Shown here in pieces: positions 26,382-64,000 of a stretch of 64,000 nt of DNA (the stretch's first letter is position 1; the number at the start of each line of letters is the position of its first letter). The position numbers and the translations under genes were made by a program. The stretch is from positions 25,670,001-25,734,000 of the forward strand of contig CM097885.1 in the NCBI GenBank assembly GCA_044892525.1. The letters run 5' to 3'. The notes under the pieces were generated by a model, which was given only the letters and a program-made list of their open reading frames with translations, made no database searches and had not been told where the DNA came from. This DNA is from Schmidtea polychroa (Eukaryota).

Positions 26382-51972
<25,591 letters not shown>

Positions 51973-56200: not shown

Positions 56201-57343
56201 ATAATAGTTAAATTATTTTTCCAAAAATTTGAGCAGGGATCTGCCTGTATTTCTAGTCCTAACCTATGTTTAACCAAAATTACTTCCAGCGACAGACCCG
56301 TGGAGAAGCCTCCACATTTCGGCCCGAAATCAGGTGCGTGAACAAAAACCCAGCATACCCACCAGTCTGAGCATCCCTAAGGTACCCCAAACAAACCATG
56401 GTATGCTGGATCTCAATTCCACGGTACTATCGTTCATAATCAATAAACATAACAATTGAACCCAATAAAAATTATTATTCAAAACTTAAAAATTAAATGA
56501 AATTTAAATAATTAAAGAGAACAACAAAATAAATCAACTGAACTAAATTGAATATAAAATTTATTAGCTTAAAACATTACATAAAAATTTCATATTAAAA
56601 TAAAATTACCAAATCCAATCCACGATGGCATAAAATCGAAAAACTGAGAGCATGTGTTTTCCTTCAATGTAATGGTTACACTATCTGAAGTAACAAGTTG
56701 TGGTGTTGAAAAAACTAGTCCCCTAACTGAATTTTCAATCAATATTTATTATAGCACAATAATTAATGACTAGTGCCACAAAGAAATTTTCAATTGAAAT
56801 CAATTATTGCGGGGGCCCACCAGCTATAGAGAGCCTAAAATTATTACTAAACAAATATTTACAATCATTTTCTGAAACTTTTTTACCGCAGTTATATTTG
56901 CCTACAAACATAAAACTATCATTGAATAGCGGCTGCTGTGAATAACTATGTATTAAACTTTAACCGAAATATTTAAGTGGAAATATTTTATATTGCGCGG
57001 GGGACCCAATTTTGAAGTTCCGCCGTTGAATGTAATCACAATACATACATAAATTAACAGCAAACGGTCAAGGTTTTATCGTATTTTTGGAATTCGGAAG
57101 TATGACGCTTTTTAATACTCGAACAAATAGTTAGTTTAGTCTTCTACATCAAAGTTCGTCTCTTTACCACAAGTTAAAAAAATATAAATTTGGCCCTAAT
57201 TGAAGGTGTTGGTGTACAAAATAATTACGCATTGTTTCAGAACTTTCATAATTAATTTATTGAAGTCTAAAATTGATTAAATAATACATTCGATAAAAAG
57301 TATCAAATTTTAGAGATCCACATAAAGATCAAGAATATATTCG

Positions 57344-58873
57344 ATGTTTTATTCACTAAATTTCAAGGATCACAAAAGAACTCAAAGAACTAGAAACAGA
57401 GTCAGCCGAATATTTAGTTATCCCGTATTTAACTCTAAGCATGCAAGAAAAATTTTCGGAACAATGCAAAGACAAAAGATCGGCTTGATCTTTGTCTGTT
57501 TCATTGAAATGTTTTTCTTTACTTTAATCATCTTTGGATTCAATTCAATTACAACGGTATTCAAATCTTTGGGAGTTTTCTCAAAATTCTGTCATCCCAA
57601 TCACAATTTCCAAATTCACAATCTAACAAATATTATTAGTTGTTTTGATCAAGATGTAATTTTCGGATATATTTTTATAATCTGGGTAAATTTCCTGGCA
57701 TTGTCTGCGATTCCTGGAGGTTTGATCTTTGATTATTTTGGAATACGATTCACAAGAATTCTTTCTTCGATAATAAATGCTGTGGGTCTAGTTTTCTTTG
57801 GATTGGTCCAATTCAATTCTTGGCTTCTGATTCCGGCTGGGTGTCTTTCTGGATTAGGAGGGTTTATGCTAGGCGTATGTAATTCTGCTATTGCCGATAC
57901 TTATGGTATTCGGAAAAACCTTATGATATCTATTCTGAGTGGTTTATCTGGTTCTTCACTGTTAGTGTTTAATATCATTAAATTTCTATATGATCACGGA
58001 ATTGCTATATACATTTCATTCTCGGTTCTTGCTGTTTCATCACTATTTATTACGATTAGTAGTACTGTGTTCCTTTTAGATAGCATCCGTTTGCCTTCAA
58101 TTACCTTTAGTAGGAATGATGAGAGTGTGGACATTCCATACTTTTCGGAAAACGAAATGGAGCATCGGAGTTTTGTGAAGGAGATTAATGAAGAAAGGCA
58201 GGATTATTTATTGAAAACTTTCCCAACTCTTTTAAAGGCTATAACTAGTAGGCTATTCGTCATGCACTTGGTTTTCTATGTAATGATAACTTATAGGTTA
58301 AATTTTTTCCTATCTCAATTGGCGTCACAGTTGAATTTTTTGTTCCCAAAAAACTTTGCCATTATTGACCATTTAAAATTTCATTGTAGCATTTTTCTGT
58401 CATTAAATTTTTTTGGTGCATTCTTTATTGGAATGCTAATCGACTACAACCTAAAGAGAGTAAATATTATTCTTGAAAATTTGCATTTGGAGGAGATTCC
58501 TGTTAAAAAGTTTAGAATTTATCACAAAGCATTTGTCATTCCATTTTTGTTTGCTAGTATTTCAATTATAATCGCTTCCTGCCTCATTGGAATAGGGAAT
58601 AGGTACGTTGTCTATGGGATCTTTGTACTAGTTTGCATAGGACGATCATTTACCGGGTGCTTACTTGGCACATATACTTTAAATGTATTTCCTAAACAAT
58701 ATTTCGGCAGCTTAGTGGCAATCACTGTTCTTCTTTCGGGACTTTTTCTTTTAACGCATTTCCCTTTGGTTAAATATGCAGCTGCAGATCAGCATCCGTT
58801 AATAATTAATTATATATTAATAGCATGTCCAATTATATCTTTGATCCATCCAATTTGCTTGTATTTTGAATAA
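57344..58873 (+). CDS. Intronless MFS transporter, SLC43 (LAT3/LAT4/SLC43A3)-like, 509 aa
   Basis: About 12 hydrophobic segments. The N-terminal EMFFFTLIIFGFNSITTVFKSLGVFSKFC…C.DQD matches the SLC43 pattern (E…..G..FGW.SL..+LK.EG.FS.LC…C..QD), and the MFS motif G.IFDYFGIRFTR is present. The true start could be a downstream ATG. Confidence 0.88.
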   Translation: MFYSLNFKDHKRTQRTRNRVSRIFSYPVFNSKHARKIFGTMQRQKIGLIFVCFIEMFFFTLIIFGFNSITTVFKSLGVFSKFCHPNHNFQIHNLTNIISCFDQDVIFGYIFIIWVNFLALSAIPGGLIFDYFGIRFTRILSSIINAVGLVFFGLVQFNSWLLIPAGCLSGLGGFMLGVCNSAIADTYGIRKNLMISILSGLSGSSLLVFNIIKFLYDHGIAIYISFSVLAVSSLFITISSTVFLLDSIRLPSITFSRNDESVDIPYFSENEMEHRSFVKEINEERQDYLLKTFPTLLKAITSRLFVMHLVFYVMITYRLNFFLSQLASQLNFLFPKNFAIIDHLKFHCSIFLSLNFFGAFFIGMLIDYNLKRVNIILENLHLEEIPVKKFRIYHKAFVIPFLFASISIIIASCLIGIGNRYVVYGIFVLVCIGRSFTGCLLGTYTLNVFPKQYFGSLVAITVLLSGLFLLTHFPLVKYAAADQHPLIINYILIACPIISLIHPICLYFE

Positions 58874-60614
58874 CTTTATTTTCAAGAATCGTCAATATAT
58901 TTGCCGAATTTTACATTCAATACTTTAAAATATATTATAAAATTTGTATAGTTTTTTATTTTTGTTTAATCGATATGAAATTTATTTTCCATTTCAAATA
59001 ATTTTAACCACTTACACTGGTTATTATGCACGCTATTACGTTAACTAACTGAACCAAATGTTGATATGATGCGAGTAGGTAGTATTGTGCACTCCAGATC
59101 CAGTTACCCCCCCCCCCTATTTTTTTGGACAGCTCCCTCCTATAATTTTTTAATTTTGTTTAAATTATTCATTACATAATAATAAAAATTTTGTTTAAAT
59201 CGTTGATTACTTCATCAATTTTTTTTTTTAATAAGAACTTTTTATGTCAATATACTTGAAATTAAATTCTCTATTAAATGAGTCTATTGGTGGGTTACAG
59301 GTAATCAAACATTTTACCCTTTCGTGCTGTCTCCAGCGTAACCCAGAATACAAACGATTGCTTGCTCCACATGATACCCGTTGAGTGATCAACGTTGGTA
59401 CTGTATCAAGAGGGTGAGTGCTCGCAAGAAGTGAGTGCATAATTTGCACTATAATTGTTGGGCACTCCTTGGGTTCACGGACTATTGATAGAATATATGT
59501 GTCCGATTTGCTCTGGTCCCTCATCTTAATTGTTTTCCAAAATATTTGCTCGTTCTCTGATCAATCAGACACCAAACATACCACAATTTACACCAATTCA
59601 TCAAATCATTTATTCCGTGTATATGTCTATTCACAAATCGCTTTAAGTTCAGGGTGAGTTTTGATTCTCCCACTGTTTCTGCTCCTCTAATCTGAGCCTG
59701 TTCAGCTTTTCTAAGTGTTGTATCCCATTCGTTTACGTTTCGGTTTACTAGGCCAAGCCGGTGGGTAGATTTCGACCAGCTCCGTTGGCAATGGTCGGAT
59801 TTGTGCGGTTACCGCCGCGTCGATGGCTCGCTGGTTCAGTTGGGTCTCCAGTGCACGTACTTGGATCTTCAGGGCGCGGATTTCTGTCTGGTCCTGGATT
59901 GTTTGAGACTGAAGTTTTTGGATCTGCGTCATTCGCTTTTTCATTTCGGTCGGGTGAACCAGGTGCTTTCGAGCTCCCGGCATTGCCCTTTAAATTTCGC
60001 GATCCTGGCCTGAAGACCTTCTACCTGTTGTTGGGCTCGCTCCCGGTCCTTCCTTAGGTTCTCGAATAATTTGAACACTACAATTTAAAGAAATTATATA
60101 TAGATACACACATACATACACATATAGATAATAAACAACCATTCGATATCAAGCGTTCAATCTTATCCTATGTCGTCGTACTTCTACCGAACAGTAAAAT
60201 CATCAAAATAGTTTGAAATGAATACATTAAACGATATTATTTTATTACTGATAACTAAACCAAATGATAATGAGGAAAAATCAAGGAAATAAATAAAAAA
60301 AGTAAAATCACATTATGGTCACTAATAAAAATTCATGAGTCACGATGTGGAATAATGAGGTCCATATTATGCTAATGGGCCAGTCTTTCTAGGTCTTCCC
60401 CATTTCTTAGGAGAGGGAAGCTAACTTCAGCCTCTTTGATAGACGTACCGGTTATCTCTGCGCGGAGTTGAGCTTCAATCGCATGGAGTTTGCTCTGAGC
60501 GATCTCGATCGCGAAACTCCACAACCTATTTTTTAAAATCATGTGGCTTCAAGATTGACCTCTTATTTTAAAAAAATACATTAAAATACAGAAATATAAT
60601 ATTTATTAAAACAA

Positions 60615-62060
60615 TTAATGTGATGAATGGAATTGTTTTTCATCCAATAGTCTATTCATATCCGGAGAATAGTTTGTAACTGCCAATCTTAAACAATTTT
60701 CCAGATTTTTATTGGTAAGTTTTGTTCGATATTTATTCTTTATGAATTTCATTTTTGAAAATACGGATTCACACAAGTACGTTGATTCAAAAAGGCAAGA
60801 TATTTTTAATGCAACATCTCTTAAAAACGGATACTGATTCGGTGTTACATGGCTCCAAAATTCCAATTGATTTTTAGAAAATTCGCAATTCAACTCTATC
60901 ATTTTTTATTGAAATTAATTCCATTTCTAGCTGTGCTTTATCATATCCAAATTGGTTATTAATAACTTCCGAAAGAGTTTCGATATTAATATTTACGAAA
61001 GGATACATAATATATTTCAAAATTGGTTCGATCTTGCGGAAATCTGCGAAGCGTTTTTCAAACTCTTCTATTAAACTACTAACAATTGGTAAATAACTTT
61101 CACAGGAAAAAAGGAAAGTGTTTTAAATCATTTTCTTTTAAGTTCATTTTCCACAAGATTAATTTTTGGCTAAAACATTGCACCGCACTTATCATGTGCA
61201 TTATATTTTTATCTTTCCCTTGCAGATCTACATTCAAGTCATTTAGCTTCGCCGTAATATCAGTAAGAAACGCAAGATCTCTAAGCCATGAAACATTGCT
61301 TAGCTCCTGATGATGTCCTCCCAAAAATGAACTTATTTGTGGTAACAATTCTCTAAAACGCTTTAAATTTTTCCCTTACTTAGCCAACGAACTTCTGTAT
61401 GTAATAACAGATCACCATATTGACAATCGAGCTCGTCAGTTAGTCCTTTAAATAAACGTCTTTGCACTGATTTTCCTCTTATAGAATTACTAATTTTGAC
61501 TACAAGTTTCATAACAGAATTCATGTTCAAAAATTTAGCATAAAGGGCTTTCTGATGTATTATACAGTGATAACTTATGAATTCAGGATATTTTTGATCT
61601 TTTTAACATAATGCAATAAAACTTTTATGCATACCAGTTAATGATGGAACTCCATCAGTAGTGATACTTACCAATTTATCCAAAGATATATTATTTTCAT
61701 CTATGAAATCCTTAACGATTTGATAAATATCCTGGCAACATGAGTGTCCTTCAAGGGTTAATATTTTTAAAAGTTCTTCTCTCACGTCGAAAGTGTTAAA
61801 CACCATACGCACAAAAATAGCCAACTGAGCTTTATCAACTACATCTGAACTTTCATCAAGTTGCATCGAAAAATAAGAACACGTATTTAGATCGGTTTGT
61901 AACTGAATAAATGTATCAGAAACCATCGAGTCTACACGGCGCGTGACAGTTTAGTTGATAATTGCAGTGAAGCTATAGCTGTCAGAATGTCAGATTTGTT
62001 TAGAAGTATCGTTAGTTTTTTAGAATGCTTGTTTTAAATATTCACCATCTTCAAATGGAT
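60615..62060 (-). mobile_element. Buster-type hAT transposase pseudogene (GTF2IRD2/EPM2AIP1-like)
   Basis: Frameshifted ORFs 61603..61926, 61100..61348 and 60615..60902 contain FSMQLDESSD, ITTDGVPSL, YHCIIHQ, HTEVRWLS, WLRDLAFLTDIT and STYLCESVFSKMK. Confidence 0.92.
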
Positions 62061-62746
62061 TTTTTTAATAACCAAAACTTTTTTCCCACGGGCTCGGGCT
62101 TTCCATTACAGATTGACTTTTGATTTTTAGTAAGTTTTAATTAATTTTGCCCTTTTATTGATTTTCCCAATATTTGTTATGTCTTTCTTTTATTTATATT
62201 ATTTTGGTTTTCTTACCAACCCCAACAATATAGAAAGTTTGATGAAAAAAGATTCGTTGCACACAAGCACGGTGCACAAAATTTCCTTAATAAAAATACT
62301 CCATTGTTCAAAAAATAAGAGCTCTTAACAATAAGTCTGGGTCTCAGTTTAAATATAAAAAAATGAATTTTGGATGTTTTCGAAGAAATATTTTATGATT
62401 CCACATCACCAATTTTTACATACAAGTTTTTTAGCTAATTTATGTTTTATTGGGAGAATCTTTACCAAAAATTGTTCATATACAAAGAAGAAATATTACA
62501 TAAAAATTTGAAGAATTAAAAAAACGCTTAAAAATGTGTTGGCATTTTGAAAAATAAAGTAGAGACACAAAATTATAAGCAAAAAGACTCTATAAAAGAA
62601 TCTGACTCACTTGATTAGAACTCAGGTTTAATAAATTAATTAATTAGTTTTTGTTCTTTTTTTCGTTTTTTGTTTTTTTGTTCTTTCATGTTCGTCTCAT
62701 CATTGGTCATATTCTATTTCACATCCATTTCCCTTGAAAAATATTA

Positions 62747-63107
62747 ACTAATAATTTTTCTTAATATTTGCCGCGCACAAAATAGTCTATAAAAAAAGAT
62801 GTTCACATGGGAATCGGTGCTTCCCGATGCAATATAAGATCCGTTTGGGTGGAACACCAGCGAAGGTACAAAACCTCCGTGCTCCTGGAATGTGTCGTTT
62901 TTGTCATTACTGCTTGACGCGATCAAATTGTGAGACAGACATAACCAAGAGTGCATTCACACATTCCAGGAGCACGGAGGTTTTGTACCTTCGCTGGTGT
63001 TCCACCCAAACGGATCTTATATTGCATCGGGAGGCACCGATTCCCATGTGAACATCTTTTTTTATAGACTATTTTGTGCGCGGCAAATATTAAGAAAAAT
63101 TATTAGT
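62747..63107. repeat. Near-perfect 149 bp inverted repeat with 63 nt loop, containing a POC1-like WD40 coding fragment
   Basis: 62747-62895 is the reverse complement of 62959-63107 except for one T/G pair (62821/63033). The + frame reads KL*DRHNQECIHTFQEHGGFVPSLVFHPNGSYIASGGTDSHVNIF. Confidence 0.93.
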
Positions 63108-63239
63108 AATAATTGTTATTGGCGTTATTAAATCGAAATAGCATTAAAATCGATAAAAATTATAGAAGGTGTGGATAAAATTAAAAGAATTTTCCTTGAG
63201 TAATTTCCACAAAACTTCAAGAAATTTCAGAAATTCAAC

Positions 63240-64000
63240 ATGAACAATCATTTCCTGACTTACCCCATATTTTCTTCAAAGAATGCAAGACAAGTCTTTG
63301 GAACAATGCAAAAACAAAAGATCGGCTTGATTTTTATTTGTTTTGTTGAAATGTTTCTTTATACCATGATTATTTTCGGATTCAATTCAATTACGATTGT
63401 GTTCAAATCTTTGGGAGTTTTTTCAATGTTTTGTCTTCATACTGATGACAGTTCTATAATAGATAACAAAACAAACATTATACGTTGTCATGAACAAGAT
63501 GTTATTTACGGGTATATTTTTATAATCTGGGTAAATTTCCTGGCCTTTTCTGCGATTCCTGGAGGTTTGTTCTTTGACCATTTTGGAATACGATTCACAA
63601 AAATTCTTTCTTCGATAATAAATGCTGTGGGTCTAGTTTTCTTTGGATTGATCCAATTCAATTCTTGGCTTCTGATTCCGGCTGGGTGTCTTTCTGGATT
63701 GGGAGGATTTGTGTTAACCATATGTAATTCTGCTATTGCCGATACTTATGGTATTCGGAAAAACCTTATGATATCTATTCTGAGTGGTTTATCTGGTTCT
63801 TCACTGTTAGTGTTTAATATCATTAAATTTCTATATGATCACGGAGTTGCTATATACATTTCATTCTCGGTTCTTGCTGTTTTATCAATGTTTATTACGA
63901 TTACTGGTTCTATGCTACTCTTAGACAGCATCCGTTTGCCTTCAATTGTTATCAAGAATACTAGTAGTGAAGACATTCCATACTTTTCGGATTATGAAAT
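63240..64000 (+). CDS. Second SLC43-like transporter paralogue, 3'-partial (runs off the window)
   Basis: ATG at 63240 follows an in-frame stop at 63201. The frame stays open to the window end (MNNHFLTYPIFSSKNARQVFGTMQKQKIGLIF…) and is collinear with, and highly similar to, 57344..58873. Confidence 0.88.
   Translation, partial: MNNHFLTYPIFSSKNARQVFGTMQKQKIGLIFICFVEMFLYTMIIFGFNSITIVFKSLGVFSMFCLHTDDSSIIDNKTNIIRCHEQDVIYGYIFIIWVNFLAFSAIPGGLFFDHFGIRFTKILSSIINAVGLVFFGLIQFNSWLLIPAGCLSGLGGFVLTICNSAIADTYGIRKNLMISILSGLSGSSLLVFNIIKFLYDHGVAIYISFSVLAVLSMFITITGSMLLLDSIRLPSIVIKNTSSEDIPYFSDYE

Follow-up and report, generated by a model that had tools for sequence, protein, structure and literature searches.

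An inverted repeat at positions 62747–63107 of the 64,000-nucleotide stretch of Schmidtea polychroa DNA analysed here (the window) carries a piece of a POC1-type WD40 repeat in each of its arms, and is probably a neutral fold-back insertion, the scar of a DNA-repair accident.

Structure and fold of the inverted repeat

The left arm (62747–62895) is an inverted copy of the right arm (62959–63107), and an unpaired 63-nt spacer (62896–62958) lies between them. As the preliminary description had it, the arms are 149 bp long, and they show Watson–Crick complementarity at 148 of 149 positions; the single exception is T62821, which faces G63033 (a Ser versus a Gly codon). Pairing is limited by 62896/62958 on the inner side and 62746/63108 on the outer side, and a repeat search with looser extension gave an inverted repeat of 159 nt at 97%. 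The right arm is in the original orientation and consists of 101 nt of POC1-derived sequence followed by 48 AT-rich nt (63060–63107, 25% GC) that do not resemble POC1 (against it, 434 of 500 shuffles reach the same score or better). The left arm has its POC1 sense on the − strand, and POC1 homology stops at its inner end. The arm-encoded peptide, as first stated, occupies 62961–63059 on the + strand and is mirrored on the − strand in the left arm; the mismatched position reads G or S. Frameshift-aware alignment places the beginning of POC1 homology at 62922, 37 nt inside the spacer, from where it runs ungapped to about 63059, so the POC1 coding sequence of the right arm extends back over 62922–62958. 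Since the homology begins inside the spacer, spacer plus right arm represent the original, of which the left arm is a copy, and the fact that unbroken homology passes from the spacer into the right arm only supports a fold-back insertion.

The RNA fold of 62700–63150 has an energy of −296.4 kcal/mol (z −33.5; 0 of 100 shuffles fold as well), with perfect runs of 74 bp within the stem, and the conclusion that any transcript crossing both arms would form a long double-stranded RNA (dsRNA) stem is supported. The T/G mismatch had been read, as a G:U wobble, as a pointer to a + strand transcript. This reading is not supported, since both strands fold almost equally (stem energies of −288.5 and −284.3 kcal/mol) and every single transition leaves G:U on one strand with A–C on the other, which makes the wobble uninformative on strand.

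Microsatellite self-matches aside, this is the sole long short-spacer inverted repeat in the non-repetitive right half of the window: the exact 14-mer inverted pairs within 1 kb in 33001–64000 are the hairpin and one 14-bp pair at 51498/51663, and the remaining 14-mer inverted matches there are self-overlapping and nearly all in (TA)n runs. Rfam gave no match at gathering score anywhere in the window. Divergence between the arms amounts to 1 site in 149 (95% interval 0.02–3.7%), against 14% between the transporter paralogues that lie nearby (below), so the fold-back is either young or homogenised by conversion, and the youth claimed for the duplication at the outset is borne out in that either-or form.

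Relationship of the coding piece to POC1

The coding piece (62922–63059, + strand) is one WD40 repeat of 46 codons with one stop and without indel relative to two POC1 orthologues, and the + frame of spacer plus right arm matches Pfam WD40 with an E-value of 3.4e-9. The two orthologues, L001 and L004, were retrieved from metagenome contigs by a degenerate motif derived from the fragment, a search with four matches, two of them in WD40 frames (L001 and L004) and two in unrelated frames; both WD40 proteins with the motif are POC1-type. L004 is full length (98–1525 of its contig, 476 residues). Among its 87 PDB matches POC1 (9qzc) is second by E-value (1.5e-96) and aligns with residues 6–310 in one stretch, and the top match is a generic multi-repeat WD40 protein whose score comes from four partial stretches. 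L004 also terminates in a coiled-coil motif typical of POC1. L001 is a partial POC1 orthologue, 54% identical to the matching part of L004.

The fragment and one repeat of L004 are identical at 26 of 50 positions (65.5 bits), and the other L004 repeats reach at most 31.2 bits. When the fragment was compared with L001, L004 and 152 fetched proteins, the top two of 2023 alignments were to the same POC1 repeat in L004 (58.9 bits; 23/42 identical) and L001 (54.3 bits; 21/42), and the next best had 47.8 bits; this ranking test is partly circular, because the motif that retrieved the two orthologues was derived from the fragment. The POC1 origin proposed for the fragment thus holds in the sense that the equivalent repeat of two POC1 orthologues ranks first among the WD40 repeats compared, and on this sequence comparison we accept POC1 as the source.

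Protein homology searches for a close relative of the fragment found none among longer proteins (0 of 3 candidates) and no candidate among short proteins. A 50%-cluster protein search returned 150 generic multi-repeat WD40 proteins with the EHGGF motif in none of them, an ESM Atlas search returned generic WD40 clusters only, and a metagenome locus search confirmed 0 of 598 candidate stretches. PDB searches with the fragment listed generic WD40 proteins first; POC1 9qzc was 20th in two of them and absent among the best 60 of 63 matches in a third. A literature search for the fragment motif together with POC1 found nothing. Within the window no other POC1 or WD40 piece was detected (phmmer, six frames; only the two arms matched).

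Lesions and codon usage

The stop is a TGA nonsense codon at 62931–62933 (+ strand), within the spacer, in place of the Trp of the preceding WD dipeptide, which is W in both L001 and L004. Reading TGA as Trp was considered and rejected: neighbouring ORFs use TGG, and the adducin exons and transporter ORFs of the window (below) are open under the standard code. The arm part of the repeat has 33 codons without stop or indel, and at four arm positions the residue is one seldom seen in the corresponding WD40 column (P 8/1973, H 11/1779, N 17/1690 and F 17/1654, frequencies drawn from multi-repeat WD40 proteins and not from POC1s) and differs from both POC1 orthologues. The stop codon and the odd residues suggest that the piece has drifted from its parent; the rare arm residues could also be true lineage-specific POC1 sequence.

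The window is AT-rich animal sequence, and Schmidtea mediterranea is placed at the AT-rich end of flatworm codon usage in the available text of PMC6739440. GC3 of the fragment, 24 of 46 codons, differs from that of the neighbouring transporter and adducin-like genes (333 of 1135; Fisher p 0.0016), and this foreign GC3 indicates that the donor lay elsewhere, in a different setting. GC-biased conversion in the arms was rejected as an explanation, as spacer (6/12) and arm (17/33) have the same GC3. We also rejected the idea that the whole spacer is decayed POC1 sequence between conserved arms: its first 26 nt do align to upstream POC1 codons when gap costs are low, but an equal or better score is reached by 219 of 500 shuffles and by 269 of 500 random segments.

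The site of the proposed insertion

To the left of the hairpin is a decayed hAT-type transposase (60618–61950, − strand, in several frames; Pfam Dimer_Tnp_hAT E 6e-7, DUF4371 E 5e-4) that lies between two transporter copies, and to its right is the second of these copies. At the exact arm ends there is no target-site duplication, and when 15 boundary settings were tried, no flanking direct repeat exceeded 3 nt (TAA, at 1 of 15).

These boundaries bear on the possibility that the POC1 fragment is cargo of a multi-copy mobile element, for example an LTR family with captured pieces of host mRNAs, and that the fold-back is a rearranged remnant of it. The fragment has no intron over 46 codons, its GC3 is foreign and its residues are odd, and the TAA repeat at the one boundary setting would fit as well; however, a 3-nt A/T repeat is expected here by chance. 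MITEs, Foldback elements and Pack-type TIR elements are short and bounded by long inverted repeats, and the hairpin resembles them in being short, with long inverted repeats and a piece of a host gene. It is unlike them in that it lacks an informative target-site duplication, has no second copy in the 64-kb window, and has arms that are mostly the cargo itself, not true terminal inverted repeats. We regard an origin as mobile-element cargo as quite improbable; were it correct, any siRNAs would hit that element first.

The setting is rich in other repeats and remnants. An adducin-like gene (26346–51972, + strand; multi-exon, relative P0002, Pfam PF00596) has a Lys-rich tail and transposon-filled introns, one of which holds a decayed Tc1/mariner-like transposase (44825–46147, − strand, in several frames; weak Pfam HTH_Tnp_Tc3_2 match, E 0.017). 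A transposase-type zinc-finger remnant lies at 35677–36127 (− strand; Pfam zf-Tnp_2 E 2.9e-5). The segment 59500–60100 is GC-richer, with a 92-aa coiled-coil-like open frame on the − strand (59714–59989) that has only weak Pfam matches, and is possibly a retroelement remnant. An HSP90 N-terminal fragment (49402–49551, + strand; ~45 codons, E 1.9e-17 to PDB HSP90) is present in an intron of the adducin-like gene, and further broken HSP90-like codons seem to continue to about 49660; stray pieces of host genes are thus not unique to the hairpin, with a background rate in the window that rests on this one other example.

The left part of the window (1–24400) consists of near-identical 6.67-kb tandem units with 19-nt and 30-nt minisatellites, and contains a perfect 4.3-kb inverted repeat (12079–16412/17657–21990); these repeats may be an assembly effect. 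Such very long identical repeats make for a difficult assembly context, and this lends some colour to the suspicion that the hairpin is a fold-back chimera, produced in the library or in assembly, and that the chromosome itself has a single arm. Against this, the arms differ at one base, and the duplication is internal, short and flanked by unique sequence on both sides, so that we consider an artefact very unlikely. The two best DNA runs contain 0.81 of the sampled words of 62600–64000, against a ceiling of 0.76 without the hairpin (p 0.14, not significant); these come from seven DNA-type runs of two studies, one of which may be the assembly's source, and word shares of this kind do not decide the presence of the hairpin. 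No RNA-type run was among those listed, which says nothing either way about expression.

The hairpin and the downstream transporter gene

The second MFS/SLC43-like ORF (63240–64000, + strand) is intronless, runs off the window and is a paralogue of the copy at 57326–58873; the SLC43 label is that of the preliminary description and does not come from a search made here. Pfam MFS_1 matches the first copy with an E-value of 2.8e-11 and the partial second copy weakly (0.0054), and the two are 86% identical in DNA over 744 nt. Between the tandem copies (57326–58873 and 63204–64000, + strand) identity is patchy, 35–42 of 50 positions at the ends and 44–50 of 50 over about 63506–63905, suggesting gene conversion, and by a crude count over 261 codons their differences mostly change the amino acid (98 versus 27 codons). 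The hairpin might seem to end where the upstream homology of the copies begins, as their alignment starts from 63108, but 31 of 300 shuffles score as well and we set this apparent junction aside.

The hairpin had been placed ~130 bp upstream of the second transporter ATG and taken as a possible 5′ leader of that gene. The distance is right (the ATG at 63240 is 132 nt from the right arm) and the strand is the same, and the left arm contains a TATAAAA at 62788–62794. A cis-acting leader would have the hairpin throttle translation of the transporter mRNA or route that mRNA to dicing. The TATAAAA lies in the left-arm mirror of the outer 48 nt, where 0.08 would be expected per 48 nt; yet the motif is common locally (47 in 29,600 nt), and a promoter scan that we ran used a bacterial consensus and is not relevant to the locus. 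There are five upstream ATGs (62799, 62807, 62827, 62890 and 63046). A stem of about −290 kcal/mol and five upstream ATGs should abolish ribosome scanning, yet the transporter ORF is intact, open over all 253 codons visible. The leader interpretation of the preliminary description is therefore not supported: a 5′-leader role of the hairpin is unlikely, and we hold cis-regulation through throttled translation or dicing to be highly improbable.

The hairpin as a candidate hairpin-RNA locus

The hairpin could instead be a working hairpin-RNA (hpRNA) locus, with its own transcript or as part of an upstream intron or outron of the transporter, whose siRNAs would lower POC1 mRNA in ciliated cells or sperm. 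The near-perfect 149-bp stem fits such a role, as does the position of the stop in the spacer, outside the arms. There is a precedent in Drosophila simulans, where the ~200-bp arms of hp-ODox1 match a single exon of a distant parent gene and the locus produces antisense siRNAs (according to the part of PMC10317233 available to us), and from planarians endo-siRNA candidates (PMC5671611, accessible text) and Dicer and Argonaute genes (PMC8797187, accessible text) have been reported.

The pattern of lesions adds little to this case. A single lesion in the 37 POC1-derived nt of the spacer, with none in the 101 nt of the arm, makes no real difference, the apparent further decay at the start of the spacer (26 nt) does not exceed chance, and the WD40-rare residues sit in the arms, which suggests drift from the parent. 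Nor does the gene context provide a carrier transcript. An intron of the adducin-like gene was considered and rejected, since that gene ends near 51972 and the hairpin lies outside it, and the interval from the hairpin to the transporter ATG showed no good splice acceptor. The acceptor at 63230, by which the hairpin might have belonged to an intron or outron, was rejected because one third of 1219 AG sites score as well with our matrix, which was built from seven sites. The predicted first exon of a relative found no match in the window. Taking these points together, we judge an active hpRNA locus to be unlikely.

Two structural marks of hpRNAs are present, a long near-perfect stem and arms homologous to a protein-coding gene. 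The class is defined, in the accessible part of PMC10317233, by Dcr-2-dependent ~21-nt RNAs and a capped, polyadenylated precursor transcript; on its structure the hairpin is a candidate and not a member. Strong stems are under-represented in standard RNA-seq (PMC10317233). The hairpin does not have the imperfect ~30–35 bp stem of a canonical microRNA precursor and matches no Rfam family, and more than 32 consecutive bp are flagged as atypical for microRNA precursors (PMC12553114, available portion).

Dicer, Argonaute, ADAR and RIG-I-like sensing of dsRNA have been reported from planarians (PMC8797187, as available), so that a long endogenous dsRNA could be processed in these animals, but could also be costly. 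Planarians have no centrosomes, and their basal bodies form in ciliated cells and sperm only (PMC4799839, whose accessible text does not mention POC1); a target class needed only for cilia and sperm would make a phenotype easy to test, if siRNAs hit POC1. We also weighed a newborn hpRNA gene, in which a repair accident would have folded a POC1 piece beside a promoter and the resulting siRNAs would tune POC1, possibly in the male germ line. This too we regard as quite unlikely; if true, it would be a natural anti-housekeeping hpRNA outside flies. More generally, siRNAs against POC1 would mean that gene-targeting hairpin RNAs are not confined to Drosophila but also occur in an animal where RNAi is in routine use. 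Among the titles listed by a literature search on planarian endo-siRNA, hairpins and inverted repeats, none describes such a planarian locus, which is weak evidence of absence.

Probable fold-back repair and comparison with known systems

The fold-back insertion that we favour would have arisen as follows. About 210 nt (spacer plus right arm) containing one POC1 WD40 repeat would have come from a distant locus, either the live POC1 gene or an already decayed copy of it. During copying, a template switch would have turned the new strand back on itself for 149 nt, leaving two inverted copies on either side of a single-copy tip of 63 nt, and end-joining would have placed this product between the dead hAT element and the transporter gene; in an alternative order of events, the fold-back would have taken place on site after insertion. 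Most likely the mature transporter mRNA does not include the hairpin, which would be without effect, and stray read-through might yield dsRNA that is edited or diced without having a selected role. If it is indeed neutral, the locus would be a clean natural case in which a distant gene served as template for an inverted insertion, and inverted templated insertions are thought to be raw material for hairpin-RNA genes. The available text of PMC11410931 contains nothing on short inverted repeats.

Compared with the POC1 centriolar WD40 protein (PDB 9qzc, and L004 and L001), the fragment likewise has the EHGGFV...FHP signature; unlike a POC1 gene it is a single 46-codon repeat that lacks a start codon and has a stop and four unusual residues, and is not a gene. 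The likeness to Drosophila hpRNAs (hp-ODox1 versus Tapas, in the portion of PMC10317233 available) is in anatomy: a young inverted repeat of 150–200 bp, with arms from a distant coding gene, in a repeat-rich setting. Because young Drosophila hpRNA loci share this anatomy, the anatomy itself is no argument against function; those loci, however, are established by ~21-nt RNAs and precursors, and the POC1 hairpin is a structural candidate in a host that is not a fly.

The proposed fold-back event resembles distant inverted templated insertions in yeast, in which two inverted, partly overlapping sequences from one locus are inserted at a distant break (Yu et al., PMC11724301). According to the accessible part of that study, these insertions have 0–4 nt of microhomology at their ends, most of them were seen in rad27 or RPA mutants, and in rad27 the two pieces overlap by a median of 50 bp; microhomology of 2–11 nt in the donor, where the inversion is joined, is a further mark of the class. 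The S. polychroa hairpin likewise consists of two pieces in inverted orientation that overlap and derive from a single distant locus, as the parent is absent from the window and GC3 is foreign. It shares with the yeast events an inverted repeat around a single-copy tip, and shows no informative target-site duplication. It differs from them in being a natural locus with an overlap of 149 bp, the yeast insertions having been recovered at an induced break and mostly in mutants (again as described in the available text), with the rad27 median of 50 bp.
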